64,000 bases of DNA from assembly GCA_000999095.1 (NCBI GenBank), contig LCFP01000005.1:36945-100944 (forward strand), read 5' to 3'. Numbering within the stretch: position 1 is the first letter of the stretch; every line of letters starts with the position of its first letter. The notes beneath the pieces were generated by a model. It searched no databases, was not told the origin of the DNA, and saw nothing but the letters and a program-made list of their open reading frames with translations. Origin of the DNA: Candidatus Gottesmanbacteria bacterium GW2011_GWA2_43_14 (GTDB lineage Bacteria; Patescibacteriota; Microgenomatia; 2-02-FULL-39-11). Shown in pieces: positions 662 through 51,894 of this stretch. The translations under genes were made by a program, and so were the position numbers.

Positions 662-1669
662 TTAAGGCAGCAGAGGCGTATTTAACTTGTGTTTGATTTC
701 ATTTAAGGTAAGCCGCGATTCGTTCTGCCATTGACGTATTTGCCTCACTCTTTCAACCATTGATGGATCATAGAGTTGATAGCCTCCTGGCGAGTAGTCT
801 TTTACTTCGAGTAATCCTTCCCGGGTCCAAAAGCGGAGGGTGGGCACGGTTTCCGCCGTCAGTTTGGCCAGCTGGCCGATTTTCAGGAGTTTGCCGGCCA
901 GTTTTGACTTTGCCGGGGAGGGGAGAGATCCTTGGGCAGCTTCCAGGTAGATATCAAGAGAGCGGTCGGCCGCTTCATAAATTAGCTCCAAATAGTCATC
1001 TATACTACCGTCCAACTGGGCTTTTTCGATGAAACTTATGTACTTCTGACGGTCTTCTTTCCGGATAATGGCCATGGGATAGCCGGATTGCCGCAAAAGC
1101 AGGTTCATCAGGAGGCGGGCTGTCCGGCCATTGCCGTCCGTAAAGGGGTGGATGGTAACCAGTTTATAGTGTGCCCGGGCGGCCAGAGTGACCGGATGGT
1201 CGCTGTTATCCGAGCGCAACCAGTCGATAAACTCTTTCATTAAATCAGGGACTTTTAACGGATTTGACATAATTACGGTAGAACCGGCGATCCGTACGGA
1301 GACACGGCGGTATCTTCCTGCATTGTTATCGTCGATTCTGGTCAGGATAAGCTTATGGATATCCAAAATATCGGCTTCGGTGATATTCTGTCTCTTTTTT
1401 GAAGAGAGGGTTTTTACCAGATCAAGGGCAAGGGCGTGATTAATGGCCTCCATATGTTCCCGTACGGTTTTGCCTTCGACGGTCAGGCCTTTTTCGATCA
1501 CCAGGGCTGTTTCCTGCCGGGAGAGAGTATTGCCTTCGATGGCATTGGAAGTATAAGTAAGTTCTACCTTCAGCCACTCGTCCAGATTGCTTATCAGTTC
1601 GGCCGGGTGCGGCAGGAAGGAGTCCAGCTGGTTCTTTTTTTCAGTGAGAGCGGTTAGTTTGTTTTTCAT
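662..1669 (-). CDS. Fic/Doc family protein (AMPylase-type Fido domain)
   Basis: Canonical Fic motif HPFTDGNGRTARLL in the 335-aa ORF. Confidence 0.9.
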   Translation of the reverse strand: MKNKLTALTEKKNQLDSFLPHPAELISNLDEWLKVELTYTSNAIEGNTLSRQETALVIEKGLTVEGKTVREHMEAINHALALDLVKTLSSKKRQNITEADILDIHKLILTRIDDNNAGRYRRVSVRIAGSTVIMSNPLKVPDLMKEFIDWLRSDNSDHPVTLAARAHYKLVTIHPFTDGNGRTARLLMNLLLRQSGYPMAIIRKEDRQKYISFIEKAQLDGSIDDYLELIYEAADRSLDIYLEAAQGSLPSPAKSKLAGKLLKIGQLAKLTAETVPTLRFWTREGLLEVKDYSPGGYQLYDPSMVERVRQIRQWQNESRLTLNEIKHKLNTPLLP

Positions 1670-1924: not shown

Positions 1925-2326
1925 ATGGACGAGAGAATAGCGGAAGAAATTCAAGCCTTCAAACCTGTTTTTGAAGCTATTAATGTTGCTACCGTAAAAT
2001 ACGGTACGGAATTGAGGTTATCCAACGGCGGAGATGTCATTTTCAGGAACGGAACAGATACAAATAAGGAAGTTAATATAGACACCAGGGTTGTCAAAGC
2101 TGTCAAAGCAGGCGAGAGATTAATGAATTTGGCATTTGAGGCCGGCATAACTTCTTCTGAATCGTTATACAGCCATCTTCATCTCGAAGTATCGGAATTG
2201 GAAGACTCTCTTTTTAAAATTGCCGATGAAAATGATGAAAGCGGGGGCGCCGAAGAAGCCATGCAAGAATTGGAAATGGTTAAGGATATGAGAGCAATTA
2301 TTGACCGCTTGCCTCAGGCTATTTAG
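1925..2326 (+). CDS. Hypothetical small acidic protein
   Basis: 133-aa ORF with no recognisable motif. Converges on and overlaps the carbamoyltransferase stop by 8 nt. Confidence 0.4.
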   Translation: MDERIAEEIQAFKPVFEAINVATVKYGTELRLSNGGDVIFRNGTDTNKEVNIDTRVVKAVKAGERLMNLAFEAGITSSESLYSHLHLEVSELEDSLFKIADENDESGGAEEAMQELEMVKDMRAIIDRLPQAI

Positions 2327-4112
2327 CCTTCTCGCAGACGAAATTACTCATAACCAGGATATCTATGCCTGAACGCTTAAAAGTGGAGTAAGCGTCGGCA
2401 GGGGAGGCTACAATAGGCTCACCTTTAAGGTTAAAGGAAGTATTAAGAAGAAGCGGCACGCCTGTTTTCTTATAGAAAGCGGAAATGAGGCTATGGAAGT
2501 CAGGATTGGTGTTTTTATAAACCAGTTGCGGCCGGGCAGTGTTATCGGCATGGGTGATAGCCGGCACTTTCTTTCTCCAGTCAGGTTTTACAGGCACGAC
2601 GTAGAGCATAAAGCGGAGAGGGAAATGCTTCGCCACCTGCGAGGAGTCATTCGGCCATTGGCCGATGCCACCTCCCAGGAGTCTCAGGTCAAAGACATTT
2701 CCAGCTTGGTCGGATAGCACGGATGGGGCAAAGGGGCGGAAAGCTTCCCGGAATTTGACTTTTGAATTGATGATATCCTTCATTTTCGGATTTCGGGGAT
2801 CGGCCAGGATAGAACGGTTACCCAGAGCCCTGGGGCCCCATTCGAAGCGCCCCCGGAACCAGCCGATGACTTTGCCTTTCATGATTTGTTCGGCGCAATA
2901 ATCAATAAGCTTATTATTGGATAGTTTTATAACCTTTACCTCGCGGGAGTCATGGCTTCCGCTTCGCTTCAGCCCGCCACCCGCAATGTGTAAAAATTGC
3001 TCGATTTCGCGATTGGAATAAGCTTGCCCTAAGTAGGCATGATTCATGCCTGTACGGGCAGGTTTATTTAAAACATGATGGTAAAGATACAAAGCAGCTC
3101 CCAGGGCACCGCCTGAGTCGCCGGCTGCCGGCTGGACAAAGATGTTTTTGAAGCCTGATTCCTTTAAAAGGCGGTAGTTGGCCACGGAATTCAGGGCAAC
3201 TCCACCGGCCAGGCAGAGATTGTCGGATTTGGTGATTTTCTTCAGGTTTTTGGCCATATTGAGAAGCAGTTCTTCGGTGACAGCCTGGATGGAAGCGGCG
3301 ATGTCGGCGGAGCGGGCAGTGATCAGATGCGCTTCCTGCGGATTGACAGGCTTTCCCAGAAGTTCCACCAGCTTTTGGGAGAAGGAGAAGCGGTCGGACC
3401 AGTGGAAGGAGAAATAGTCGAAATTAAGGCTGAAACTGCCGTCCCCGTTCATTTTGACCGTTTTCCGTATTTCCTTTTGATACTTGGGTTTGCCGTAGGG
3501 AGCCAGTCCCATGACTTTCCATTCGCCTTCATTGACCTCAAATCCCAAAAAAGCAGTAAAGGCGGAATAGAGAAGACCCAAGGATTGCGGAAAATGGATC
3601 TCTTTGAGTAATTTAATTTTATTGCCGGAGCCAAAGCCGGTTGAGGCGGTTGTCCATTCACCGACGCCGTCGACGGTCAAAATGGCCGATTTTTCAAAGG
3701 GAGAGGGGTAAAAAGCAGAGGCGGCGTGGGACAGATGGTGTTCGGAAAAGAGGATTTTATTCCCGGGCAGTTTTAAATATGAAGCTATTTCACTTTTGAT
3801 CCAGAGCTTTTGGGTCATCCAGAGCCGGATGGCTTCGCGGAATGAGGCATAAGAGCGGGGAAAGGTGGATAAAGTTGAAATGAGGATACGGTGGAATTTG
3901 CGGAAAGGCTTTTCGTAAAAAACAACGTAATCAAGGTCAGAGGCATTCAGGCCGGTCTCAGCCAAACAGAAATCGATAGCATTACCGGGAAAGCCGGAAT
4001 CATGCTTTTTGCGGCTGAAGCGTTCCTCCTCGGCTCCCGCGGTAATCCGGCCGTCCTCCAAAAGAACGGCAGCCGCATCATGGTAATAGCAGGATATGCC
4101 CAAGATTTTCAT
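2319..4112 (-). CDS. Carbamoyltransferase (NodU/CmcH/HypF-like Carbam_trans N+C domains)
   Basis: N-terminus MKILGISCYYHDAAAVLLEDG and GVALNSVANYRLL-type signatures over 597 aa, typical of NodU-family O-carbamoyltransferases. Confidence 0.85.
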   Translation of the reverse strand: MKILGISCYYHDAAAVLLEDGRITAGAEEERFSRKKHDSGFPGNAIDFCLAETGLNASDLDYVVFYEKPFRKFHRILISTLSTFPRSYASFREAIRLWMTQKLWIKSEIASYLKLPGNKILFSEHHLSHAASAFYPSPFEKSAILTVDGVGEWTTASTGFGSGNKIKLLKEIHFPQSLGLLYSAFTAFLGFEVNEGEWKVMGLAPYGKPKYQKEIRKTVKMNGDGSFSLNFDYFSFHWSDRFSFSQKLVELLGKPVNPQEAHLITARSADIAASIQAVTEELLLNMAKNLKKITKSDNLCLAGGVALNSVANYRLLKESGFKNIFVQPAAGDSGGALGAALYLYHHVLNKPARTGMNHAYLGQAYSNREIEQFLHIAGGGLKRSGSHDSREVKVIKLSNNKLIDYCAEQIMKGKVIGWFRGRFEWGPRALGNRSILADPRNPKMKDIINSKVKFREAFRPFAPSVLSDQAGNVFDLRLLGGGIGQWPNDSSQVAKHFPLRFMLYVVPVKPDWRKKVPAITHADNTARPQLVYKNTNPDFHSLISAFYKKTGVPLLLNTSFNLKGEPIVASPADAYSTFKRSGIDILVMSNFVCEKAK

Positions 4113-4118
4113 CGTTTT

Positions 4119-4397
4119 TCAAGCCTGTTGAGTGAGTTCGGCGATTGATTCCGTTTGGCTTTTTTTAAGAAGCCAGGATGATTGACTTTGCTTTTTTATT
4201 TTCAATTCGTCTTTAAAAAGGGAATAAAGAAGGCCGAAAGGGGAGAGGATCAGAAAATAGAAAACAGTCAGGATGACTTTGGATTGGAAAACACCGAGAC
4301 GGTGGGCCAGTTTTTTCCAGGCAGACCAGAGAGTGCGCAGGAAACCCATTTCAAAAAAGAGTATAGATAAAGGGAGCGGCCGGAGAGCTTTGGGCAA
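4119..4397 (-). CDS. Small membrane protein, SxtJ-like (carbamoyltransferase-associated); start uncertain (TTG at 4397 or internal ATG)
   Basis: Hydrophobic ORF with ...SKVILTVFYFLILSPFGLLYSLF... directly upstream of the carbamoyltransferase on the same strand. Resemblance to SxtJ-family proteins is from memory. Confidence 0.45.
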   Translation of the reverse strand: MPKALRPLPLSILFFEMGFLRTLWSAWKKLAHRLGVFQSKVILTVFYFLILSPFGLLYSLFKDELKIKKQSQSSWLLKKSQTESIAELTQQA

Positions 4398-4524
4398 AAA
4401 CCATCAGGACACCCAGCAGAATCAGCACGGTTATCATGGGAATCATCCACCACAGCCGCTCTTTCCAAAGGTACTGCAGCAGTTCTTTGATGATGCCGGA
4501 TTTGAGGAAAATCTTTTTCAACAT
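4351..4524 (-). CDS. DUF5989-like 57-aa membrane protein (not in supplied ORF track because it is under 60 aa)
   Basis: Hand translation gives MLKKIFLKSGIIKELLQYLWKERLWWMIPMITVLILLGVLMVFAQSSPAAPFIYTLF. The WW...IP...LLG...APFIYTLF C-terminus matches the DUF5989 family as I recall it, and that family co-occurs with carbamoyltransferase and SxtJ genes. Confidence 0.55.
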   Translation of the reverse strand: MLKKIFLKSGIIKELLQYLWKERLWWMIPMITVLILLGVLMVFAQSSPAAPFIYTLF

Positions 4525-4594
4525 GCGTTCTTTTAATTATTATACTCTTTTTAAGTCAAAAATTAACTCCCAAGAGTGTATAATTGGGTAAAAT

Positions 4595-5200
4595 ATGGCA
4601 GGCTCAATCCGTGTCAAAGTTGTCATTTTTTCGGTCATAAATCAGAAACTGCAGCTTTATCTGCCGGCAGGCAGGCTGCCGCAGGCACAGATTTCCACGA
4701 CTTCTTCCTTAAACTCAATCGCCATCAAAATTGTCCAGGAGGTTACCGGAGAGAAGATAGATGAGGGATATCTTGAGCAGCTTTACACCTTTTCCCATCC
4801 GGTCGAGCACGATACAAGGGTTGATATTATTTATTTCTACCTTTTATCTGACCATGATATCAGGGAAAGCCATAGGGAATCCTTTATTGCCAATGAACAT
4901 CTTTCAAAAAGCGTTTCGGAATTTTCAGCCATCAGTTATGCGGTGCAGCGGCTGAGATGGAAAATCGAATACACCAATGTCGTTTACAGTCTCCTGCCTC
5001 GGGAATTTACCCTCTCGGAACTGCAGAAAATCTATGAAGCGATCCTGGGCAAGGACCTGGATAAAAGGAATTTCCGCCGCAAAATCCTTTCCCTGGGACT
5101 GCTCCGCTCAAGCGGCAGGCAAAAAACCGGTTTGAAAGCCAGGCCGGCCAAAATGTATTCCTTCCGCCACCGCAACCCCATGATGATCAAGGTCTTCTAA
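4595..5200 (+). CDS. nrtR: NrtR-like regulator: Nudix-like N-terminal domain plus C-terminal winged-helix domain
   Basis: C-terminal FTLSELQKIYEAILGKDLDKRNFRRKILSLGLL...RPAKMYSF matches the NrtR wHTH signature. The gene is immediately upstream of pncB, niaP-like and pncA-like genes. Confidence 0.65.
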   Translation: MAGSIRVKVVIFSVINQKLQLYLPAGRLPQAQISTTSSLNSIAIKIVQEVTGEKIDEGYLEQLYTFSHPVEHDTRVDIIYFYLLSDHDIRESHRESFIANEHLSKSVSEFSAISYAVQRLRWKIEYTNVVYSLLPREFTLSELQKIYEAILGKDLDKRNFRRKILSLGLLRSSGRQKTGLKARPAKMYSFRHRNPMMIKVF

Positions 5201-5262
5201 TCGTGTTCTTATCTTTTCCACTTGAAGTAATCATCCTGTATGGTGTATATTGGATGGATACT

Positions 5263-5281
5263 TAGTGTAAAGGATACACTA
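5263..5281 (+). promoter_or_regulatory. Perfect inverted repeat TAGTGTA-AAGGA-TACACTA overlapping the pncB RBS; candidate NrtR operator
   Basis: 7-bp arms are exact reverse complements with a 5-bp spacer. The site ends 2 nt before the pncB ATG and its centre is the AGGA Shine-Dalgarno. Confidence 0.45.
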
Positions 5282-5282
5282 T

Positions 5283-6332
5283 ATGAAATATTTTGATTCA
5301 GAAACAATAACAAAAATAAGACAGGGCTATTATACGGCGGTCTATTTTAACCGCACCAAGGAAATTCTCCTGAAAGTAAATAATTTAAAAAGGGTGACGA
5401 TGCAGATTTTTCAGAAAAAGAAGGGCAGTATTCTAAGCGGGGTAGAGGAAGTCAGGGAACTGATGGAGTCGGCAACCGGGTTTTTTAAAGGCAGCAGTTG
5501 GATCGATAAAAGCCCGGAGCTTAAGGTTTCCACCTTGAACGATGGAGATGATATTTCAGCCTGGGAAACCGTCATGCATTTGATGGGCCCTTATGTCTAT
5601 TTTGCCCATCTGGAGTCAATTTACCTGGGGATTTTAGCCAGAAGGACACTGGTTGCCACCAATACCCGCCGGGCAGTTGAGGCTGCCGGGGGTAAACCGG
5701 TCATATTCTTTGCCGACCGCTTTGATCACTTTCTCAATCAGGAAGGTGATGGCGCGGCTGCCAAAATTGGCGGAGCTTCGGCTATTTGTACCGATGCCAT
5801 GACGAAATGGGCGGGCGGCGAACCTGCCGGCACCATTCCCCATGCTCTGATTGCAGTTTTGGGGGGTTCAACGGTTAAATCAGCCGAACTTTTTAACAAA
5901 TATTATCCGGGGGAAAAATTAATCGCCCTGGTTGATTTTAATAATGATTGCGTCACTGACAGTCTGGCTGTTTCGGGCAGGCTGGGTGATAAACTTTGGG
6001 CGGTCAGGCTGGATACACCTGCCGATATCGCCGATAAGTCATTGGAGCAGAAAAAGGATAATTTCGGCGTAAATCCATCTTTGGTTAGGGCAGTACGGGA
6101 AGCTTTGGATAAGGCCGGTTTTGCCAAGGTTAAAATCATCGTTTCCGGAGGTTTTTATCCGGAGAAGATTGCCAAATTTACTGCAGAAAAAGTTCCGGTG
6201 GACGGATACGGCGTAGGCTCAGCCCTTATCCACGGGGAAAATGATTTTACAGCTGATATTGTCGAAGTCGAAGGCCAAAAAAAAGCTAAAATCGGCCGTG
6301 AGTATAAGGATATTAGAAAAATTTTCCGATAA
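5283..6332 (+). CDS. pncB: Nicotinate phosphoribosyltransferase (short archaeal-type NAPRTase)
   Basis: 349 aa with PRTase type II-like C-terminal motifs (VSGGF...VDGYGVGS). Context with NrtR, the transporter and nicotinamidase supports the assignment. Confidence 0.6.
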   Translation: MKYFDSETITKIRQGYYTAVYFNRTKEILLKVNNLKRVTMQIFQKKKGSILSGVEEVRELMESATGFFKGSSWIDKSPELKVSTLNDGDDISAWETVMHLMGPYVYFAHLESIYLGILARRTLVATNTRRAVEAAGGKPVIFFADRFDHFLNQEGDGAAAKIGGASAICTDAMTKWAGGEPAGTIPHALIAVLGGSTVKSAELFNKYYPGEKLIALVDFNNDCVTDSLAVSGRLGDKLWAVRLDTPADIADKSLEQKKDNFGVNPSLVRAVREALDKAGFAKVKIIVSGGFYPEKIAKFTAEKVPVDGYGVGSALIHGENDFTADIVEVEGQKKAKIGREYKDIRKIFR

Positions 6333-6366
6333 AGTCGGGATCAGCCTTTGGCTGAAGAAAGAAAAT

Positions 6367-7698
6367 ATGGCTCAAAAAAAGATAATACCTGCCTCTGTTG
6401 AAGATATTTTAGCCCGGGGAGGGATGACCGGCTTCCATAAAAAAGTTGTCCTGGTGACAGGCCTGGCCTGGACATTCGTTTCCATGGAGATTTTGCTGAT
6501 AGCTTTCACCCTGCCTTTGTTTGCCTCGATCTGGAAGCTGTCCGGTCTCTGGTTGGGACTTATCGGTTCCGCCTCTTTGATCGGTTCATTTATAGGCTCC
6601 ATGATTTTAGGCAGGTGGTCGGACAGGTTCGGACGGCGCAGTGTTTTTATGGGCAGCGTCCTCTGGTACAGCATCTTTACGGCAGCCACCGCTTTTGCCA
6701 CAGGCCCGGAAACTCTTTTTGTCTTCCGCGTCCTGGCCGGAATAGGCTTGGGAGCGATGCTGGTGATTGACCCGTCGGTCCTGGCCGAATACCTGCCGCC
6801 GCAAAACCGCGGCCGGTATATGGTCTTTCTGGATTTTTTCTGGCCGATCGGCAATCTTCTTGCTCTGGGTTTGTCGTATTTCTTTTTGGAAAGGATGAAC
6901 GGAGACTGGCGCGGACTGTTCCTGACCGCCGCCTTCCCGGCTTTTTTAACCTTTATCATCCGTTTCCTTATTCCGGAGACACCGTTTTACCTTGCCAGGA
7001 TCGGCAAACTGGCGGAAGCAGCCAAAGTGCTGACTCTGGCTACCGGGCAAAAAATCACGGCAGCCATGATCAAAAAAGAAGAGGTATTCAAAAGCGCTCC
7101 GATAAAAGACCTTTTCCGGGGGAAGCTTTTGAAGGCCACCATAGTCACTTTGATTTCCTGGGTTGTTCTTAATTTCAGCTATTACGGTCTCTTTATCTGG
7201 CTGCCGCAGGTTTTGCCGGTGATCCAGAATTTCCGGATAGGCAATATCTATACTTTGCTATTGCTTTCTGTTTTGGCCCAGTTTCCGGGATATCTGGCGG
7301 CCATGTGGCTGGTTGAAGCGTGGGGGAGAAAAAAAACCCTGACAGCCTTTTTAATCCTGGGAGGATTGTCCGGCCTGGTTTTTGCCACGACCAATTCCTA
7401 TGTCTCATTTTTGACCGCTTTGTTTCTGGTCAGTTTCTTTAATCTGGGAGCCTGGGGAGCCATCTATCCTTATACGGTGGAGCTTTTCCCGACCCTATTG
7501 CGGGGCACGGCATTCGGTTTTGCCGCCGAAGGCATGGGCAAACTGACGGCAATATTCGGACCGCTGGTTTTCGGTTACCTTTTGGACAAAACCGGCGGGG
7601 TAGGCATCTCACTGGTGATGGTGGCTGCCGTCATGACAGTGGGAGGAGTGGCCGTCGGCTATCTGGGGCCGGAAACCAAAGGCAGGAAACTGGAATAA
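6367..7698 (+). CDS. MFS transporter, possible niacin/nicotinamide importer (NiaP-like)
   Basis: About 12 TM segments and MFS motif A GRWSDRFGRRS. ATG at 6367 chosen over the longer track ORF that overlaps pncB. Substrate is inferred from operon context only. Confidence 0.75.
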   Translation: MAQKKIIPASVEDILARGGMTGFHKKVVLVTGLAWTFVSMEILLIAFTLPLFASIWKLSGLWLGLIGSASLIGSFIGSMILGRWSDRFGRRSVFMGSVLWYSIFTAATAFATGPETLFVFRVLAGIGLGAMLVIDPSVLAEYLPPQNRGRYMVFLDFFWPIGNLLALGLSYFFLERMNGDWRGLFLTAAFPAFLTFIIRFLIPETPFYLARIGKLAEAAKVLTLATGQKITAAMIKKEEVFKSAPIKDLFRGKLLKATIVTLISWVVLNFSYYGLFIWLPQVLPVIQNFRIGNIYTLLLLSVLAQFPGYLAAMWLVEAWGRKKTLTAFLILGGLSGLVFATTNSYVSFLTALFLVSFFNLGAWGAIYPYTVELFPTLLRGTAFGFAAEGMGKLTAIFGPLVFGYLLDKTGGVGISLVMVAAVMTVGGVAVGYLGPETKGRKLE

Positions 7699-7701
7699 TT
7701 T

Positions 7702-8502
7702 ATGAGAAGTGATTTTTCAGACTGGCTGGAAGCCTGGTTTAGAAAGTTAAAACCGTCATCTTTCCGGGATTTAAAAATAGATCCCGGCAAAACTGCATTG
7801 GTCTCGGTTGACATGGTCAAAGGTTTTTGTTCGGTCGGGCCTTTGGCCAGTCCCCATATTGCCGCCATTATCCCGGAAGTTACGGCGGTGTTTCGGAAAT
7901 GCCATAAAAGCGGGATTAAACACTTCCTGCTTTTCCAGGACACCCATCATCCTGAGACGCCGGAATTTTCCTCATACCCTCCGCATTGCCTTCGGGGGAG
8001 CAGAGAGTCGGAGACGGTCGATGAACTGAAAAGCCTGCCTTTTTCAGGCCAATTTACCATTTTTGAAAAAAATTCCATCAGCCCGCAATACAACACCGGA
8101 TTTGACGGCTGGCTGGAAAAGCATCCGGAGATTGATACCTTTATCATTGTGGGGAACTGCACTGATTTGTGTGTTTATTTCCATGCCATGCATCTGAGGC
8201 TTTCCGCCAACGCGGCAAATTTAAAGAGGAGGATTATTGTGCCGGAGGCAGCGGTCCAGACTTATGATATGCTCGTTGCCACGGCCCAAAAAATCGGCGC
8301 CCTGCCGCATGACAGGATTCTTCTCCACAAAATTTTCCTCTATCATCTTTCCCTGAACGGGATAGAAGTCGTGGCTTCGCTTGATCTAAAAAAATCCAAG
8401 CGCCGGGGAAAATCAGTATACGGATTATTCAATGCTGTGAATGCAACTGAAAAGCACATTGAAGAAGTCTTTCTTTCATTGAAAAGCCTTGATAAGATTT
8501 GA
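7702..8502 (+). CDS. pncA: Isochorismatase-family cysteine hydrolase, probable nicotinamidase
   Basis: VSVDMVKGF and GNCTDLCV motifs (catalytic Asp and Cys of isochorismatase-like hydrolases). Start is 4 nt after the MFS stop. Confidence 0.65.
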   Translation: MRSDFSDWLEAWFRKLKPSSFRDLKIDPGKTALVSVDMVKGFCSVGPLASPHIAAIIPEVTAVFRKCHKSGIKHFLLFQDTHHPETPEFSSYPPHCLRGSRESETVDELKSLPFSGQFTIFEKNSISPQYNTGFDGWLEKHPEIDTFIIVGNCTDLCVYFHAMHLRLSANAANLKRRIIVPEAAVQTYDMLVATAQKIGALPHDRILLHKIFLYHLSLNGIEVVASLDLKKSKRRGKSVYGLFNAVNATEKHIEEVFLSLKSLDKI

Positions 8503-9603: not shown

Positions 9604-9629
9604 CCCCGCTTTTACCGGCGGGGTTTTAG
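9604..9629. terminator. Bidirectional rho-independent terminator shared by convergent genes
   Basis: Hairpin CCCCGC-n8-GCGGGG flanked by A-run/T-run on both sides. It overlaps the last three codons (PRR*) of the minus-strand gene. Confidence 0.6.
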
Positions 9630-11876
9630 TTTATAGATAACAAGAGATAAAGCAGCCGTGATTTCCAGAATAAGCAAAAAAACCTTTAAAGGCATAGGCC
9701 GGTGGACAACTTCGATGCGGTGGCGGCCGGGCGGAGCTTTGACGGCCACATAGTAGGGGAAGACGGCGAATTTCTCGGTTTCCGCTCCGTCCAGATATGT
9801 CCGCCAGTTAGGATGGTAGCTTGATTTGAACATGATAAAACAGCTTCGGCAGCCGGCCGGCACTTCGACGTCGGCGGAATAAGTCTGTTTGTCGACTTTT
9901 TCGGAGATGAGGCGTCCTGAGGGAGTTGATTCGGGAAAAACGAAGGGAAAGTCGGAGAAAATATTTTTTTCAGCCCCGTTTTCCTCGTAGGTCACCTCAT
10001 TGACCATTTTAATTCGGCGCTCCATTCCTTCCGGAATATAAGGATTTTTATCAACACTGATAAGGGGATGCATTTTCCAGGTGCGGGGATAGCCGCGGTG
10101 CCAGAGATGGACGATATTGATGAAATCTGTTTTGCCGGTCTCCACAAACATGGGGGAAGTAACCACTTCAAACCAGCCTCCGGTTGGCACTTCAAAAACT
10201 TTGAAAGGTCCGAATTCCTTTGTCAGTTTTGCTTCAGGCGGGAAGTTTTTGTTTTCGGGCGCCACAATATATCGGGAATTCAGAAGGCCATAATCAGCCG
10301 CCACCCTTTCGTCAAAGTTCTGGTCGTTCTCGCTCATCATCGACCATGTCTCCGGCAGGAATTGGGTAATGTCCATGCCGAATACACTCAGAAGCATATA
10401 AATCTGACTGGAACCGAGACGGAAATCATGTCCCCAATTGCCGGGACGGCCGGCATAAATCCTGGTTGCCGGCAGGTTTTTGAGATATGACAACATGTTT
10501 TGGAAATTCTTTTCGTCATAGCGGTAAGCGGAATTGGCCTCACCGATCCAGCGGCTGTTCAGGGAGTTATATTTAAAGGTTTGTCCGGCTGTTAAATAAA
10601 AAATAACGGCTGAAACGGTTAGAAATAAAACCTGCGGCAGGAAGCGGACTTGCGGAAACTCGGGTTCCAGACGGGGATATCTTTTTTTAAGCCCGTCCGC
10701 AATTTGATTAAAAAGGTGTAAAAAACCGTTAACGGTCCCGGCAATCAAAAACAGGGAGCCGATATGGACACCGACGATAAAGCGGTGCAAGTGGAAATCG
10801 CTTAAGCCCGGTACCAGGTCGATAAGTCCCCCCCAGGTTGTACGGCCGAAATATAAAAGCATCATAACTGAAAAAGCCAGGGCAAAGACAAACATATTAG
10901 TATCGAGAAGGATTAAAAAAAAGCCGAAAAGGGTCAGATAAGTGATTACAGGAGCCCTCTGCCAGTCAAAAGTTTGTCCGGCCAGGAATTGTTTGGCGGT
11001 TTCATACCAGCCGTATGAATCAAATTTCCAAAGCGGATCCCAGAAGGAAATTATATGGTAATTGTTGTAAAGGAGAATGGGGATTATCCAGTAGGACAGA
11101 ATAAATATTAAGGCAAAAAAGATGAACATCAATTTTTTCAGCCTGGCCAAAAGCTGCCGTTTGTTTAAATCTAAAAAGATGAAAGGGGAAATAAAGATAA
11201 GAGAAATGATGCCCATGCCCAGATGACCGGCAGTTGTCAAAACCAGGAAAAGCACGGCCAAAAGGGTATTTTTATTGACAAGACCCGCAGTTTTAAACGA
11301 TTTAAAACTGTAGGCCAATGCCAGGGGCATGAAAGTCATGGCGTAAAGCTGGGAAGTCAGCCCATAACCTCGCCAGAGAAAACTGGGCGGATCGATGCCG
11401 TAGAGGCCGTCGGTTGAATAGTGGGAGGCAAGTATTGCCACAACTGCAGAAACAATCGGAGTAAAACCAGCAATTCTTAAAGCGAGAAAAACCGGCAGGG
11501 GAAAGAGGGCCAGCAGCAAATATTTAGTCCAATTGTAATATTCAAAAAGGCTAACAGCCTGACCTATAAGCGAAGTCAAAGGATAAATAAGCAGTTTATG
11601 GGAGGCGACGATGACGATTTGAGGCAGATGGGAATAATAAAATGGCAGGGCATACCCCTCCGCCCAGTAGGTGACGTTGTGGTCGACCAGATTGGGCAAA
11701 CAGGCAAGGCTTATCGGACAGCCGTAGTTTTCCCAGACCCAATTGGTCCTGTTTACAAGTGAATACTGGAATATATTATCGTTGGGATCCCCGAGGATTT
11801 GCGTTTCCGGGAAATAAAGGTAGAGGTTTAGAATGACGGCCAGGGCTACAATTGCAAAACTTAAGATTTTTTTCAT
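9612..11876 (-). CDS. Large polytopic membrane protein with ~300-aa C-terminal extracytoplasmic domain; possible glycosyltransferase (YfhO/GT-C-like)
   Basis: 754 aa from MKKILSF at 11876, the ATG 1 nt after the upstream gene's stop. More than 10 predicted TM helices followed by a soluble domain. Family assignment is uncertain. Confidence 0.55.
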   Translation of the reverse strand: MKKILSFAIVALAVILNLYLYFPETQILGDPNDNIFQYSLVNRTNWVWENYGCPISLACLPNLVDHNVTYWAEGYALPFYYSHLPQIVIVASHKLLIYPLTSLIGQAVSLFEYYNWTKYLLLALFPLPVFLALRIAGFTPIVSAVVAILASHYSTDGLYGIDPPSFLWRGYGLTSQLYAMTFMPLALAYSFKSFKTAGLVNKNTLLAVLFLVLTTAGHLGMGIISLIFISPFIFLDLNKRQLLARLKKLMFIFFALIFILSYWIIPILLYNNYHIISFWDPLWKFDSYGWYETAKQFLAGQTFDWQRAPVITYLTLFGFFLILLDTNMFVFALAFSVMMLLYFGRTTWGGLIDLVPGLSDFHLHRFIVGVHIGSLFLIAGTVNGFLHLFNQIADGLKKRYPRLEPEFPQVRFLPQVLFLTVSAVIFYLTAGQTFKYNSLNSRWIGEANSAYRYDEKNFQNMLSYLKNLPATRIYAGRPGNWGHDFRLGSSQIYMLLSVFGMDITQFLPETWSMMSENDQNFDERVAADYGLLNSRYIVAPENKNFPPEAKLTKEFGPFKVFEVPTGGWFEVVTSPMFVETGKTDFINIVHLWHRGYPRTWKMHPLISVDKNPYIPEGMERRIKMVNEVTYEENGAEKNIFSDFPFVFPESTPSGRLISEKVDKQTYSADVEVPAGCRSCFIMFKSSYHPNWRTYLDGAETEKFAVFPYYVAVKAPPGRHRIEVVHRPMPLKVFLLILEITAALSLVIYKLKPRR

Positions 11877-11877
11877 G

Positions 11878-13656
11878 TTATTTATATAAAACAGGATTAA
11901 ACCAGTCGGCATGGTCGCCGTTGATGCCGTCACCGGCGTCTGTCACTTTCAAGCCTATATACCTGATGCCGCTGATTGAAACTTCAATATGCTGCGGAAA
12001 GTCAAAACGGCCCATTTTGTTACTTTCGAACAATAATTTTCCATCCCCGTAAATTTGAAATACGGCTGTAGCCTGGGTAGGCGCTTCAGTATCGATGCCG
12101 TAATCTGTCGATAATTTGCTGAATTTGCGGTTGAGATCAAAAACCAGATTGGAATTGGCATGGGTGCCGAACCCTTTGCGGTAATAGAAATAACTGCTTG
12201 AGAGCCTGCTCCATTTTTTCCAGCCTTCAAAAGAATTAACCGAACGGTTGACCTGGAGGGAGCCGTAATCCTGCTGGATCATGATGGGTTTAAAGGAAGT
12301 CAGGGACATTTTTCCTCCGGCAATGTATGACAGGTGGCTGGCGATAATCAAAAGAAGAAAGGCAGCTGCCGCAGCCAGAATATACAGGTAGCTCAATTGG
12401 CTGATAACAAGTGGCAGCATCATCAGGTATAGAATCAGCGACAGGTATGAATTTAATATGGTCGTGGTTTGATTGGTGACGGCAGTCAGAAAGCCGAGGC
12501 CGTTTTGGGGATAGTTGATGACCAGTCCCGCATGAATATTGAAGAATATGTTGAGGCAAAAAAGGGAATAAAGTATCCAGAAATACTTTTTGAATTTTTT
12601 TTCCAGGAAGGGATAGAGAAAAAGCAAAAGCACCGCAACAGGGTAACTGTATCTTTCATGGCTTTGGGTGGACAGGAGGAAAAAAGAGAAAATGGCAAAA
12701 GTCAAAGACATGATGAAATTGCGGGCAGTCGGACGCAGAAATGTCAAAAGACAGGCGATCAGGTAACCGGCGGAAAAAAGATACAGCCCGACTTTTTTGG
12801 CATTCATAATTCCCAAGACCGTGACTTTATCGGTTGTGGTCATACCTGCCCCTTTTGAGACAATCCACCAGAGATTATGGGCATTCAGGGACATCCAGGG
12901 GAAATAATCGCTGTTGACGGTCAAAAGGTTCAGGACTTGGTCTGTTTTTCCCTGGATGACAAACGGTAGGATGATTAAAAGAAAGACGGTCAGGAATATT
13001 GCCAGAGATTTAATAACGGTTTTCAGGTTGTAGTAGCGGAAAACAAAGATAAAAAAAATCGGGATAAAGATGATGTTCTGCAGTTTGACCTGCGGGCCGA
13101 TGGCAAAAATCAGTGTGGCCAAAAGAGGACGCTTATAAAAAAGAAGCAGCATCGCCGTCAGGGTAAAAAGCAGCCCCAGCGATTCGACCTGACCCCAAAC
13201 TGCGGAATCGATAATAACAACGGGATTGAGGAAAAAAACCGTGGCTATGATAAGCGGCAAATTCCGGGTCAAAAGATGTTGGTCAACGCCCAGGCTGACA
13301 AGTTTATCCTTTTGTTTGAGAAACCAGTAAAGCATGGCGGCGATAACACAATCGGCAGTTATCGCAATTGATTTGGAGGCCAGAAGGAAAGAAAAATTAT
13401 TTACGCGCCAGAAAGTCCAGTAGTCGTGGGGATCCCCCAGAAGCGAATAAAGTTTACCCATTAGGTAGAGGACATAGATAAAACCGGGCGGATAATTGAT
13501 GTTGGTATTAAAGGCTGTCCAGACGATGCCGTGGTCAATGGCGGCCAGACTCCATGATTTCCAGAAGGAAATATCAGCCTCAAATCCGGGATTGCCGACT
13601 AAAATCAAACGGATGACAAGTCCGGTAAATAAAACGAAGATAAAGGCAGTCTTCAT
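11878..13656 (-). CDS. GT-C fold membrane glycosyltransferase (PMT/ArnT-like) fused to a C-terminal NPCBM-like carbohydrate-binding domain
   Basis: N-terminal RLILVGNPGFEADISFWKSW loop and multiple TM helices. C-terminus KGFGTHANSNLVFDL...IYGDGKLLFES...GIRYIGLKVTDAGDGINGDHADWFNPVL matches NPCBM (GH98-associated CBM) signatures. Confidence 0.65.
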   Translation of the reverse strand: MKTAFIFVLFTGLVIRLILVGNPGFEADISFWKSWSLAAIDHGIVWTAFNTNINYPPGFIYVLYLMGKLYSLLGDPHDYWTFWRVNNFSFLLASKSIAITADCVIAAMLYWFLKQKDKLVSLGVDQHLLTRNLPLIIATVFFLNPVVIIDSAVWGQVESLGLLFTLTAMLLLFYKRPLLATLIFAIGPQVKLQNIIFIPIFFIFVFRYYNLKTVIKSLAIFLTVFLLIILPFVIQGKTDQVLNLLTVNSDYFPWMSLNAHNLWWIVSKGAGMTTTDKVTVLGIMNAKKVGLYLFSAGYLIACLLTFLRPTARNFIMSLTFAIFSFFLLSTQSHERYSYPVAVLLLFLYPFLEKKFKKYFWILYSLFCLNIFFNIHAGLVINYPQNGLGFLTAVTNQTTTILNSYLSLILYLMMLPLVISQLSYLYILAAAAAFLLLIIASHLSYIAGGKMSLTSFKPIMIQQDYGSLQVNRSVNSFEGWKKWSRLSSSYFYYRKGFGTHANSNLVFDLNRKFSKLSTDYGIDTEAPTQATAVFQIYGDGKLLFESNKMGRFDFPQHIEVSISGIRYIGLKVTDAGDGINGDHADWFNPVLYK

Positions 13657-14371: not shown

Positions 14372-14399
14372 TTTTTATGATAAAATTTTAGCATTTCCA

Positions 14400-42226: not shown

Positions 42227-42304
42227 GATTGGTTGTAATATAGCAAAATTACCTGAAGAAAAATATATTTTACTTTGCCCGGGTATCTAGCTAGAATAGC
42301 AATA

Positions 42305-49037: not shown

Positions 49038-50659
49038 AGTGGAGGATTTTACCGCTGGTTATTTTTTGGCTGGTGATATTGGTAATTGTTGCCCTTCCTG
49101 ATCTGAGGCGGGTTTCTTATACACCCGGTAATTCCTTTTACCCTCTGATCCATAAAGAGCACGAAGACTACTATTCATATTTGTCCTATATCAAACAGGG
49201 CCGGAGCCGGAATACCCTGGTGGATCAGTATACTACCCGGCAGTTGTCTCCTTCGCTTCTCCATAATTACTATTTGATTTTGGGGAAAATCGGGAAAATT
49301 ACGGATTTGTCGGATATTTTCATGTACCGGATCGGTTTATATGCCCCGCTCATCTTTTACGTTTTTATGAGTTTCCGGCTGGTTACCCTTTATCTGCCTC
49401 CCAAATACCATTGGCTGGCTTTGTCCATGATTTTTTTTGCCAGCCCGTATCCTTCGGAAAAGTTCAGTCTTTTAGGCAGAAGTTTTTCATTGGGAGCCGA
49501 ATGGTGGACGGGACTGGATATTTACAGCAGGCTGATGATGAAGCCGCACCATTTTATCTCCACAGCACTCATGATGGCGGCTGTCTACGCTTTCCTGAAA
49601 TTTCTTAGGTTGAGAAAGCTGCACGATTTGGTGTTTACCGGAATATTAATGGATTTGGCCATGGTTTTTTTCGCTCCGCCTGCCTTGATTCTGTTATCCT
49701 CCTTATCATTTCTGTTGTTTGTTTATCTGCTGAGCCTTCTTTACGGGATTATAAAAAAGAATCCTTTGAAAAAGCCAAAATTAAGGGAAGTTGCGGCAGT
49801 AATACTTATCCTGATCTGCTCTCTGTTTATAATTAAATTTGTTCAAAACGAAGCGGCAAAGAAAAACCTGGTGAATTGGGAAAGCGCCAGATTAAACGCT
49901 CCATTGGAATCCCTGCCCCTATTAACTTACAGGTTTTTCCTGCCCCTGGGAATTTTGCCGTTATTTTTCATACCCGCATTTTTTTATATCAGGCGGAAAA
50001 AACAGCTTATTTTTGCCTTTCCCATGCTGATTATTTTCATTTCATACTTGCTGTTTATCTTTTCGGCCAAAGGTATTGTGCCTATACCAATGATCAGGAT
50101 GATTTATTATGCTCCCTATGTTTTCGGCGGTCTGACGGCTGCCTTTGGCGCTGTATACCTGATTGAGCGTACGTCAAAAACCTGCAAAAGGGCAGTATGG
50201 ATCTGTTTAAGTTTGCTGTTTTTTTTAAATGCCCTTTGGGGTTTGAAATCGTATTGGTGGCCTGAGGTGGTAAAAAAAGAGATTTTTCTAAATACCTATA
50301 TTCCTGTTCCTTATCTTGAAGCCATGGATTTTCTAAATTTCGGTACAGACCGCTATTCCAATGTCATGAGCACTTTTTATACCGGTATGTTTATACCCGC
50401 ATTTACTTATAACAAGGTTTATATCGGGCATGAAGCCATTGAGGAGTTTCCCGTAATTTGGTGGACAGCCGGACATTTTATGGCGGGTAAATTTTCAGCC
50501 GGTGACGCCGCGAAGTTTTTGACGGAAAACCGGATCGACTATGTTTTCTGGGATCAGGGAGATTTACCGCAGGCGTATTCGGGTCTGATGGATCAGGTCT
50601 ATAAAAATGAATACGTAACAATATATAAGATAGTGGAAACGCAAGATAAGCCGGGCTAA
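49034..50659 (+). CDS. Paralog E of the ~540-aa membrane protein family
   Basis: YPLIHKEHEDYYSYLSYIKQGRS and C-terminal YTGMFIPAFTYNKVYIGHEA...IDYVFWDQGD. ATGA-coupled to paralog D. Confidence 0.55.
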   Translation: MKWRILPLVIFWLVILVIVALPDLRRVSYTPGNSFYPLIHKEHEDYYSYLSYIKQGRSRNTLVDQYTTRQLSPSLLHNYYLILGKIGKITDLSDIFMYRIGLYAPLIFYVFMSFRLVTLYLPPKYHWLALSMIFFASPYPSEKFSLLGRSFSLGAEWWTGLDIYSRLMMKPHHFISTALMMAAVYAFLKFLRLRKLHDLVFTGILMDLAMVFFAPPALILLSSLSFLLFVYLLSLLYGIIKKNPLKKPKLREVAAVILILICSLFIIKFVQNEAAKKNLVNWESARLNAPLESLPLLTYRFFLPLGILPLFFIPAFFYIRRKKQLIFAFPMLIIFISYLLFIFSAKGIVPIPMIRMIYYAPYVFGGLTAAFGAVYLIERTSKTCKRAVWICLSLLFFLNALWGLKSYWWPEVVKKEIFLNTYIPVPYLEAMDFLNFGTDRYSNVMSTFYTGMFIPAFTYNKVYIGHEAIEEFPVIWWTAGHFMAGKFSAGDAAKFLTENRIDYVFWDQGDLPQAYSGLMDQVYKNEYVTIYKIVETQDKPG

Positions 50660-51894
50660 TTCTTTTTGAGAAATCCCATGAGATATTCTTCCAAGTGTTT
50701 TGCCAAGAGCTTGTTTCCCTTGGCATTAAAATGTCCGTCGTAAGGAAAAAAACAATCGTCGGCACATTTTTCCCGGAAATATGAAAGATTGTCAAAAACC
50801 GTCATGCCTGAAGGTGAAGCAGCCTGTTTAAGAAAGTCGACAGGCTCACCGGACATCCAGGGTTGTCCGGAATACATAAAACCCATTTTTACCATAGTGT
50901 CAGCGCGGACTTTTGAGATAAACAGGCCGTAGGGAATATCGACGATAAAAGGGACCGCACCGTGGTTTTCGGCAACAGTACTTATTTCATTAAAAACAAC
51001 ACCTAGTTTTTCCGCCGCCTGTTTGACTATTTCATCATTCTCCATAAAGGCAGAAAAAAAATCGGGTTTGGCAATAGCCAGGGATAACAGATTGGGATTG
51101 AGGTCCCCTTTAAGATACATATCCAGCACCTCCGGGTCAATTGTGTTTTCAATGGAGGTTAGCTGTTCGTCGGCCACCCGGCTGATAAGAGTGACAAGGT
51201 TGGACATATTTGCCGGGCGGATATCGACTTTTTTATAGGGGGATAGGAGAGCGGAAAAATAAGGAAACAGGTTTGTGATATACCGGCCGATATTTACCGT
51301 TTTATCGGAAAAGGACTGTCCGGCGGCAATTCTTGCCAGCAGTCTGTTTCTTACCGTATCTCCTGATTGTGCCGGTATAAACTGCTTTTCAGGCGGGGGG
51401 GCGATCTGTCCGATATCTTCCCCCTCGACAATACCGATAAGCAGAATATCGGGGTTGAAAAGCGGAACAAATTTTTTAATATTGTCCAGATAGTTATATG
51501 GGCTTGTACCCGGCTGGCCAAGATTGAAAATTTCGATTTTCCTGTCCTTCAGGCGGCGGCCTAAATTTTTTTCAAGCACAGTTATCCAAATATCATTCTC
51601 ATCCGCACCGTTGCCGAAGGTAAAAGAATCGCCGAAAGCCAATATTCTTACGGTGTTAACCGCTTTCGGCTTTTGATATTCCCGCCCGCGGAAGCCCAGG
51701 GAGTTGGTTTTGGCCAGATAGCTGAATTCCGGGCCCTGATAGACAACGGCAGTATTTGGGGGTAAAAAAAAGACATCCCGCAAGTCAGGTTTTACCGGAA
51801 TTCCGAAAATCTTTAACAAAACTTTGTCAGCCGAAAAAAGCAGGGTCAAGGTAGCCAAGGGCAGTAATAAAATGATTACGGTTTTTTTATTCAC
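50656..51894 (-). CDS. SGNH/GDSL hydrolase with N-terminal signal/anchor (possible carbohydrate esterase or O-acyltransferase accessory protein)
   Basis: ILAFGDSFTFG block I motif in a 412-aa ORF. Confidence 0.6.
   Translation of the reverse strand: MNKKTVIILLLPLATLTLLFSADKVLLKIFGIPVKPDLRDVFFLPPNTAVVYQGPEFSYLAKTNSLGFRGREYQKPKAVNTVRILAFGDSFTFGNGADENDIWITVLEKNLGRRLKDRKIEIFNLGQPGTSPYNYLDNIKKFVPLFNPDILLIGIVEGEDIGQIAPPPEKQFIPAQSGDTVRNRLLARIAAGQSFSDKTVNIGRYITNLFPYFSALLSPYKKVDIRPANMSNLVTLISRVADEQLTSIENTIDPEVLDMYLKGDLNPNLLSLAIAKPDFFSAFMENDEIVKQAAEKLGVVFNEISTVAENHGAVPFIVDIPYGLFISKVRADTMVKMGFMYSGQPWMSGEPVDFLKQAASPSGMTVFDNLSYFREKCADDCFFPYDGHFNAKGNKLLAKHLEEYLMGFLKKN

Follow-up and report, generated by a model that had tools for sequence, protein, structure and literature searches.

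The closest described relative of the genes discussed here is the sxtI-sxtJ-sxtK(-sxtL) block of the saxitoxin clusters. SxtI, SxtJ and SxtK are treated in the literature as acting together, with SxtJ and SxtK uncharacterised (PMC2885083, PMC2679770), and the latter two have been listed as unknown neighbours of carbamoyltransferases since the saxitoxin cluster was described. The sxtK gene is 165 bp long, coding for about 54 residues (PMC2679770), and the next gene is sxtL, a GDSL lipase/SGNH gene; the four have the consecutive accessions ABI75099-75102. We describe here a set of three genes on the minus strand of a 64-kb stretch of DNA (the window, meaning the whole stretch analysed) from Candidatus Gottesmanbacteria GW2011_GWA2, which belongs to the candidate phyla radiation (CPR). 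They code for a carbamoyltransferase, a short SxtJ-like protein (mini-SxtJ), and a 57-residue protein of the family DUF5989. The set is another member of the sxtI/J/K-type module, known since 2008 and uncharacterised.

The closest solved enzymes to the carbamoyltransferase are TobZ, NovN and GdmN (PDB entries 3ven, 9s2t and 7vyj), which are soluble, act on antibiotics, and have no reported membrane microprotein partners. In TobZ, carbamoyl phosphate and ATP give carbamoyl-AMP, from which an O-carbamate is formed. HypF, of the same YrdC-like/Kae1-like superfamily, uses carbamoyl-AMP to carbamoylate HypE at its extreme C-terminal residue, a Cys; in contrast to what is proposed below, HypE is soluble, the group goes to a thiol, and the reaction serves to make a cyanide ligand. 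NodU and the carbamoyltransferases of the lipopolysaccharide (LPS) core belong to the same enzyme superfamily, and act on the sugars of Nod factors or of the LPS core.

A different comparison is suggested by the C-terminus of DUF5989. DltX and the PatA/AlgI-type membrane-bound O-acyltransferases (MBOATs) have at their very C-terminal end the sequence F-X-Y-X-X-F, known as the acyl-shuttle motif. Its Tyr takes up an acyl group from the membrane enzyme and passes it to the catalytic Ser of DltD or PatB, anchored SGNH proteins that attach it to the polymer (PMC12148441). DltX from B. thuringiensis, whose sequence we confirmed as Pfam DltX, is a 48-residue protein in which a basic N-terminus is followed by one transmembrane helix and by a tail of 15 residues on the outside, with FIYNEF as its end (PMC5541007), and PatA from N. 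gonorrhoeae ends in FIYANF (PMC12148441). The literature searched states no DltX-like microprotein as known outside the Dlt pathway, and a sequence search of the PDB found no DltX chain.

The trio and its conservation

All three open reading frames (ORFs) that the initial annotation had placed on the minus strand were found. In their 5′ to 3′ order they are a DUF5989 (SxtK-type) membrane microprotein of 57 residues (4351..4524), mini-SxtJ, of 76 residues and homologous to the C-terminal half of SxtJ (4119..4349), and an ATP-dependent O-carbamoyltransferase of 597 residues, from the TobZ/NovN/GdmN (NodU/CmcH) superfamily (2319..4112), each with an ATG start. A carbamoyltransferase, an SxtJ-like gene and a third gene for a protein of about 50 residues thus lie adjacent to each other on one strand, which is what marks out a trio of this type. 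Only 1 nt separates the TGA of the 57-residue ORF from the ATG of mini-SxtJ at 4349, and 6 nt separate the stop of mini-SxtJ from the ATG of the enzyme. Given these gaps, the three genes are translationally coupled. The same coupling is present in the related locus L001.

Both small ORFs are already in the public annotation of this genome, as hypothetical proteins. The 57-residue ORF had been described as missed; it is indeed below the 60-residue default of the program used to list ORFs, which is probably why it was not listed, but it is not unannotated, being identical to NCBI UV73_C0005G0043. It had also been described as overlapping the middle ORF. An upstream in-frame TTG at 4397 would give a middle protein of 92 residues (4119..4397), but this form is probably too long. 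The 76-residue ATG form is favoured because the public annotation (UV73_C0005G0042) has 76 residues, and all ten close homologues have 74-77. The overlap is thus probably absent, since the middle gene likely begins at the ATG at 4349.

The 597-residue protein has an N-terminal Kae1-like domain and a C-terminal YrdC-like domain. Both of its Pfam domains score above threshold (Carbam_trans_N 283.6 bits, Carbam_trans_C 226.4 bits), and it aligns from end to end with NovN (9s2t, E 1.8e-82), GdmN (7vyj) and TobZ (3ven), in agreement with its original identification as a carbamoyltransferase of the NodU/CmcH type. It was rejected as an orthologue of NodU itself, because it scores 155.1 bits against the NCBIfam equivalog model NF041651, which has a cut-off of 1000. 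Weak matches to HypF domains were also seen. The metal- and nucleotide-binding motifs HHLSH (residues 125-129), DGVGEW (148-153), GPRALGNRS (426-434) and NTSFN (557-561) are invariant in 15 module-linked enzymes. At the level of sequence, the alignments show that the enzyme retains every catalytic motif of the TobZ-type O-carbamoyltransferases, YrdC-like and Kae1-like alike. It has no signal peptide, and by its sequence is a cytoplasmic, ATP-dependent enzyme. Where the module-linked enzymes differ from TobZ, NovN and GdmN is that they form a much tighter group, being 49-69% identical across phyla, from CPR bacteria to Proteobacteria.

In some other genomes, genes for the supply of carbamoyl phosphate stand beside the module. 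Directly downstream of it in a Rokubacteria contig (L003, 9786-12180) are carAB, the small and large subunits of carbamoyl-phosphate synthetase, and in the same position in an Anaerolineae contig (L012, 1413-2387) is a carbamate-kinase-like AA_kinase with the motif ITHGNGPQVG.

The 57-residue protein matches Pfam DUF5989 (PF19451) with 71.9 bits against a cut-off of 27 (E 4.4e-20). Residues 10-57 align with profile positions 2-49 of 49, so that the resemblance to DUF5989 noted in the initial annotation is upheld by a full-length match. The family is a large one, with at least 8000 clusters at 90% identity, and no paper naming it was found in the literature searched. The protein starts with an amphipathic helix, continues with one transmembrane helix, and closes with a tail that ends in APFIYTLF-COOH. 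The FIYTLF motif is encoded at 4354-4371 and is followed immediately by the stop codon; the codon for Tyr54, which lies within the C-terminal peptide …SSPAAPFIYTLF, is at 4363-4365. AlphaFold2, run with a family alignment, predicts helices at residues 2-22, 24-46 and 49-56, with a mean pLDDT (predicted local distance difference test) of 78. The predicted helix 24-46 is straight, with pLDDT values of up to 95, and the terminal helix 49-56 is short. In the family the mean net charge is +2.1 in the N-terminal flank and 0 in the tail, and from this bias an N-in/C-out topology is predicted.

The middle protein scores 20.0 bits against Pfam SxtJ (PF19588), which is below the gathering threshold of 24.4, and covers approximately positions 51-92 of the 99 in the profile, that is, the C-terminal part. 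There is no precomputed Pfam domain on the 76-residue protein or on its ten close homologues. Jackhmmer searches started from the 76-residue protein and from a Pfam-positive SxtJ of 138 residues nevertheless converge on the same 78 ORFs, and hhalign of the Gottesmanbacteria 76-residue family profile against the long SxtJ profile gives 97.4% probability (E 1.6e-11), with residues 4-75 aligned to columns 64-139 of long SxtJ. By these profile comparisons the 76-residue protein is homologous to bona fide SxtJ, and matches its C-terminal half. The earlier description of the middle ORF as SxtJ-like therefore stands on the jackhmmer and hhalign results, but not on the Pfam gathering threshold or on coverage of the full-length profile. 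The short form makes up 35 of the 78 SxtJ-like ORFs in the sampled loci, and is what Pfam's threshold for SxtJ misses.

Mini-SxtJ consists of an amphipathic helix, a hydrophobic helix with a conserved Pro, and a basic tail. The window protein corresponds to the C-terminal unit only, and the two N-terminal transmembrane helices of the full three-helix SxtJ are absent from it. The SxtJ family has no conserved His or other obvious catalytic residue. AlphaFold2 models mini-SxtJ with low confidence (pLDDT 67) as one long helix, in which a transmembrane and a re-entrant arrangement are not separable. Many SxtJ proteins, both long and short (loci L005-L087), have a conserved basic-aromatic C-terminus (…Y-E-R-Q-F, R-M-Y or Q-Q-Y). 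The commonest ending is RQF; the window protein ends in …TQQA instead.

Two independent samples of loci were used to look at conservation. Sample 1 consisted of genome loci seeded with the DUF5989 tail, of which 88 were analysed. Sample 2 was drawn from metagenome contigs, with the enzyme as seed and without regard to the small ORFs, and gave 78 loci with the enzyme; a well-flanked subset of 39 of these had at least 1.5 kb on each side. A scan with the DUF5989 tail found the module in at least 457 species genomes, from Omnitrophota, Chloroflexota, Acidobacteriota, Planctomycetota, Bacteroidota, Proteobacteria, Nitrospirota, Microgenomates and others. In sample 1, a carbamoyltransferase was present in 76/88 loci and an SxtJ-like ORF in 77/88, most of the remainder being truncated contigs. 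In sample 2, 68 of the 78 loci had SxtJ, 63 had DUF5989, and 32 had an SGNH gene. The well-flanked loci had SxtJ in 37/39, DUF5989 in 34/39, both in 32/39 and SGNH in 21/39, and every one of the 39 had at least one of the small proteins.

The module genes in sample 1 are almost always on one strand, and all gene orders were seen, for example SxtJ>CT>DUF (12 loci), DUF>SxtJ>CT (10) and CT>SxtJ>DUF (10), where CT is the carbamoyltransferase. Free permutation of gene order combined with continued linkage implies that the linkage is functional rather than historical. The close relatives hold exactly the local synteny of the window, namely nrtR and then, divergently, DUF5989, mini-SxtJ and the enzyme. 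The conserved triad claimed at the outset is thus seen in both samples, as well as in the sxtI/J/K literature (PMC2885083, PMC2679770). The trio is best explained as a self-contained, horizontally mobile module of the sxtI-sxtJ-sxtK type. Apparent natural fusions of DUF5989 or SxtJ with the enzyme or with SGNH were rejected, the long ORFs being in-frame upstream extensions over real genes in high-GC contigs (L009).

Compared to the saxitoxin block, the trio has the same enzyme family and the same SxtJ family, and sxtK occupies the position held by DUF5989 in the window. From its size and position, we infer that SxtK is DUF5989; no match in the DUF5989 searches bore the name SxtK. The differences are that the window module has no surrounding toxin pathway and is in a CPR bacterium, that its SxtJ is half-length, and that the SGNH gene of the window is not adjacent.

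The substitution rates indicate that the small genes are under selection. Against three relatives, the ratio of non-synonymous to synonymous substitution rates (dN/dS) was 0.03-0.18 for the 57-residue ORF, 0.25-0.28 for mini-SxtJ and 0.10-0.12 for the enzyme, all at a dS of roughly 1 or higher. In the closest two of these comparisons the 57-residue ORF, at 0.03-0.04, is below the enzyme. Both upstream genes are real, strongly constrained membrane microproteins. Their small size, and the fact that no ribosome-binding site is recognisable by eye, might have pointed to chance frames or decaying remnants with no function, but this has virtually no chance of being correct, and is refuted by the conservation data: the Pfam match is highly significant, dN/dS is 0.03-0.28, the genes are conserved from CPR bacteria to Proteobacteria, and their start and stop codons are coupled. 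The 57-residue frame is conserved in related genomes, and relationships to both DUF5989 and SxtJ were found, as had been anticipated.

The C-terminal tail and the SGNH partner

The C-terminus of DUF5989 is almost invariant, F-x-Y-x-x-F-COOH, an observation that is new here. The pattern F.Y..F occurs at the very end of 149/158 DUF5989 ORFs, as against 5/13,829 other ORFs from the same loci. A second estimate is provided by 67 tails from enzyme-seeded loci, which were picked without reference to the motif: Phe is found at position −6 in 60/67, Tyr at −4 in 65/67, and Phe at −1 in 62/67, the two tails without Tyr at −4 being offset by a single residue. Among the five non-DUF5989 ORFs that carry the motif, two are true MBOATs, ending in FIYFQF and FIYFEF (DltB homologues, E 7e-31 and 3e-24). 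The presence of genuine MBOATs among the five background ORFs serves as an internal control for the motif. No report tying an acyl shuttle to carbamoyltransferases was found in the literature searched. The motif, and the SGNH protein described below as a fourth component, are additions to the initial annotation.

The likeness to DltX extends to the architecture. DUF5989 is also a free-standing microprotein of about 50 residues, with a basic N-terminus, one transmembrane helix, and a tail of 12-15 residues, which ends at the extreme C-terminus in F-x-Y-x-x-F with an invariant Tyr (FIYTLF here, compared to FIYNEF in DltX and FIYANF in PatA). Its length, the helix at 24-46 and the charge bias fit a DltX-type microprotein of N-in/C-out topology, the topology being predicted. 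As in the Dlt system, a frequent partner is an extracytoplasmic SGNH protein with an anchor at its N-terminus. There are also clear differences: no MBOAT accompanies DUF5989, the activating enzyme linked to it makes a carbamoyl-adenylate and not a thioester, and SxtJ is an extra partner with no counterpart in Dlt.

MBOATs were looked for in several ways. None was detected in the scanned parts of the window. A hidden MBOAT or AT3 partner was sought among twenty polytopic neighbours, which were either Wzy_C, PMT_2 or DUF2142 proteins or of unknown type, and in a Pfam census of 143 adjacent genes, where neither MBOAT nor AT3 was one of the 25 most frequent families. In two loci (L083 12112-14583 and L129 3563-7016), an MBOAT and SGNH pair stands beside the carbamoyltransferase module, and these contain the two MBOATs with the endings given above. 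A fused and a free-standing acyl-shuttle motif are thus found together in each of the two clusters.

An SGNH (GDSL) protein of 320-490 residues, of the sxtL type, accompanies the module in 36/88 loci of sample 1 (41%), and in 41-54% of sample 2. Of 43 module-linked SGNH proteins, 42 have N-terminal membrane anchors (one or three, preceded by basic residues), the exception being an ORF that begins inside the SGNH domain. Anchors of this kind imply that the SGNH domain is outside the cytoplasm. The nucleophile Ser and the His are invariant, and some of the proteins reach the Pfam AlgX model. The SGNH partners are only 13-22% identical to one another. An attempt to classify them by sequence as transferases or esterases was not discriminating. 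Nor is there any bias in adjacency, the SGNH gene being next to the carbamoyltransferase 23 times, to DUF5989 22 times and to SxtJ 13 times.

Within the lineage of the window, the relative L170, whose DUF5989 is 88% identical, has a 422-residue AlgX-like SGNH gene (L170 8716-9984, minus strand) between nrtR and DUF5989, 16 bp from the DUF5989 start, an observation that takes in L171 as well. The gene is missing at this position in the window and in L168. The comparison of L170 with the window and L168 shows that the fourth component was recently gained or lost in this lineage. The window does contain one match to the hidden Markov model of module-linked SGNH proteins (E 2.2e-17), a membrane-anchored GDSL/AlgX-like protein of 412 residues at 50656..51894 on the minus strand. 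It has Pfam Lipase_GDSL/GDSL_2 matches, an N-terminal signal anchor, and GDSF and DGHF motifs, and it aligns over its full length with the AlgX-like gene of L170 (22% identity, E 8e-14). By sequence, it is a candidate for the fourth component.

How the module may act

The genes that surround the module in other genomes give some indication of the acceptor. They include GT4 and GT2 glycosyltransferases, DegT aminotransferases, sugar-nucleotide epimerases/dehydratases, Wzy-type polymerases (Wzy_C), PMT_2 GT-C enzymes, Wzz/tyrosine-kinase co-polymerases, Bac_transf, WecG, sulfotransferases and methyltransferases. By association, an envelope glycan or polyprenol-linked sugar is plausible as acceptor. 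The initial annotation had suggested a glycan or lipid-linked sugar. This fits the enrichment of such neighbours elsewhere; in the window, the nearest glycan genes are at least 7 kb from the trio. In many loci, that of the window included, the module is in unrelated surroundings.

The reading that we favour, tentatively and at a little below an even chance, is that the trio is a membrane-bound carbamoylation module for an envelope acceptor, in which the Tyr of DUF5989 takes part in the transfer. If the chemistry follows that of TobZ, the enzyme in the cytoplasm would use carbamoyl phosphate and ATP to make carbamoyl-AMP, and would then transfer the carbamoyl group to a hydroxyl. The anatomy of the microproteins and their neighbourhoods suggest that they are obligate partners, which would hold the enzyme at the membrane and help to deliver the carbamoyl group to an acceptor in the cell envelope, for which a surface glycan or a polyprenol-linked sugar is the most likely choice. 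The most likely role for Tyr54 would be to carry the carbamoyl group as a tyrosine carbamate, and to hand it on outside the membrane, either to the SGNH protein acting as a transferase or directly to the acceptor. A link between enzyme and tail is suggested by the fact that the tight partner of DUF5989 is the enzyme and not the SGNH protein, by the carbamoyl-phosphate supply genes beside the module in L003 and L012, and by the precedent of HypF. In addition, the strong conservation of the enzymes (49-69% identity) compared to that of the SGNH partners (13-22%) fits an invariant first acceptor and variable final acceptors.

A more ambitious version of this proposal is that DUF5989, and by extension SxtK, is a second and far more widespread family of free-standing acyl shuttles, forming part of a complete MBOAT-independent carbamoyl relay via an AlgX-like SGNH protein, with saxitoxin SxtI-J-K-L included. 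The TobZ/HypF-type partner enzyme would O-carbamoylate the invariant C-terminal Tyr, and the SGNH protein, as a transferase outside the membrane, would take the group over and bring it to surface polymers. We regard this as unlikely, but its consequences would be considerable. There would be a widespread and so far unseen O-carbamoylation of bacterial surfaces in many phyla, including the CPR; the acyl-tyrosine mechanism would extend beyond MBOAT and AT3 systems; and the last step of saxitoxin synthesis (SxtI-J-K-L) would be reassigned, changing the view of carbamoylation and decarbamoylation of paralytic shellfish toxins. If the relay is false, the finding is one more copy of a known, uncharacterised trio. 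In either case, the tail motif and the SGNH partner turn an unexplained gene association into a directly testable idea of what SxtJ and SxtK do.

A number of observations weigh against the favoured reading. The trans-membrane step has no explanation without an MBOAT, given that the enzyme is cytoplasmic and the predicted topology puts Tyr54 across the membrane from it. In 168 loci, iterative jackhmmer searches turned up just two MBOATs, and conserved polytopic partners of other kinds were not found. Homology to DltX could not be established: hhalign against B. thuringiensis DltX aligns the last 10 columns only (0.5%, E 0.12), and Pfam DltX (PF12459) gives no cross-hit to DUF5989 at E up to 5. 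There being no detectable homology, the resemblance to DltX is one of motif and architecture only. The SGNH family profile matches AlgJ/AlgX at 1e-7 to 1e-6, while its best PDB matches are ordinary esterases, and about half of the loci have no adjacent SGNH gene, including that of the window, where the candidate is 46 kb from the trio and only 22% identical to the relative's gene. In the 64 kb of the window, no carbamate kinase or carbamoyl-phosphate synthetase homologue was found as a source of carbamoyl phosphate, and the immediate neighbours of the trio are NAD-salvage genes and a tRNA, not glycan genes. In saxitoxin producers the acceptor is a small molecule. Finally, the case is built from sequences and models.

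The first of these difficulties disappears if no membrane crossing is required. Mini-SxtJ and DUF5989 could merely tether and orient the enzyme at the cytoplasmic face, where it would directly carbamoylate a polyprenol-phosphate-linked sugar or glycan before flipping. The tail would then be a structural or interaction motif, and the SGNH protein would be an extracytoplasmic esterase that trims carbamoyl or acetyl groups; SxtL is classically viewed as a decarbamoylase. This is the simplest topology. It is compatible with the SxtJ hydrophobic helix, which is basic on both flanks and has a central conserved Pro, as might suit a monotopic hairpin, and with neighbours that act on lipid-linked sugars (Bac_transf, WecG, GT2, GT4); the esterase matches of the SGNH profile, and the loci that have no SGNH gene, also point in this direction. 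It leaves unexplained, however, why conservation in the module should be highest in an octapeptide whose predicted location is across the membrane from the enzyme, why this tail coincides with an acyl-shuttle motif, and why enzymes serving different glycans should be so similar in different phyla. We place passive anchoring on the unlikely side, but as a serious contender.

Two further explanations have less to recommend them. The only named members, SxtI/J/K/L, are in a toxin pathway (PMC2679770, PMC2684587), and together with the antibiotic substrates of the closest solved enzymes this could mean that the module carbamoylates a soluble metabolite, with the microproteins coupling it to export or self-protection. 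We consider this improbable: there are no biosynthetic genes, such as those for a polyketide synthase, nonribosomal peptide synthetase or amidinotransferase, near the module in the window, and none are among the most frequent families in the 143 sampled neighbours; the host is a reduced-genome CPR bacterium; the module is in hundreds of species genomes (at least 457) from many phyla; and the cross-phylum conservation of the enzyme speaks against diverse small-molecule acceptors. Alternatively, DUF5989 might carry acetyl or another acyl group from an MBOAT or AT3 encoded elsewhere, its linkage to the carbamoyltransferase reflecting co-regulation of two modifications. The motif has so far been known only from MBOAT-dependent pathways, and two loci do have an MBOAT and SGNH pair adjoining the module. 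Yet DUF5989 is linked to the carbamoyltransferase (34/39, tightly and on the same strand) and not to MBOATs (2/168), and both of these MBOATs bear their own fused motif, FIYFQF or FIYFEF, so that no free shuttle is needed. This seems to us more improbable still.

Surroundings of the module in the window

The trio is arranged head to head with a NAD-salvage unit, which runs divergently from it on the plus strand (4595-8502) and consists of an NrtR-type regulator (4595-5200), a nicotinate phosphoribosyltransferase-like gene (NAPRT, 5283-6332), an MFS transporter (about 6364-7698), and an isochorismatase/nicotinamidase (7702-8502). In the relatives L001, L168 and L170, too, nrtR and DUF5989 stand head to head. 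Upstream of the 57-residue ORF, and inside the start of the divergent nrtR gene, is a sigma-70-like promoter-like site on the minus strand (4590..4617; TTGACA, a 16-nt spacer, and TATTTT), which is a pattern match only, from a consensus scan with 10/12 matches. The 70-bp gap between nrtR and the 57-residue ORF contains a 13-nt inverted repeat, ATTATACTCTTTT / AAGAGTGTATAAT, at 4539-4551 / 4572-4584. By its sequence and position, the repeat (4539..4584) is a candidate operator common to both divergent units. A reading of it as an NrtR-type operator was rejected, since its half-site is not enriched in the window (5 matches, compared to 6.9 expected).

The other flank of the trio has a 133-residue gene with no known function, a tRNA-Ala(GGC) on the plus strand just downstream of the carbamoyltransferase operon (1757-1832), and, further on, a 335-residue protein with a Fic/DOC domain fused to a C-terminal MerR-type helix-turn-helix domain (662-1669, minus strand). 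The tRNA, together with the variable content around the module in relatives, hints at a rearrangement-prone spot. In L168 a transposase comes after the enzyme, and in L001 a 23S_rRNA_IVP gene is present between mini-SxtJ and the enzyme.

Farther along, the window codes for GT2 enzymes, several PMT_2-like GT-C proteins, and a group with DegT and formyltransferase-GNAT genes that is Arn-like. The Arn-like set comprises a PMT_2 GT-C protein (40913-42226), a DegT aminotransferase (42275-43399), a fusion of GNAT and formyltransferase (43396-44763), a second PMT_2 protein (44779-46272) and a GT2 enzyme (55175-56200). Its sequences, near the SGNH gene, suggest a pathway for modification of polyprenol phosphate with amino sugars.

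In a membrane protein at 11878-13656 on the minus strand, a region that weakly matches ALG6/ALG8-like GT-C proteins is joined to a glycan-binding NPCBM domain at the C-terminus; the protein is kept beside the NAD-salvage unit in the relatives L168 and L170. The window also has strikingly many ORFs of 520-770 residues that have no Pfam match, and are found among the GT2 and PMT_2 genes. The ORFs with no Pfam match are at 9612-11933, 14316-16043, 16790-18424, 19240-20883, 23263-25131, 47478-50659 and 53507-55135. One of them, of 773 residues, contains some 10 hydrophobic helices; the corresponding protein of L170 matches YfhO weakly. These ORFs may be divergent envelope glycosyltransferases of the GT-C type, typical of CPR genomes. 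The largest ORF in the window, of 1447 residues, is at 59164-63507 on the minus strand.

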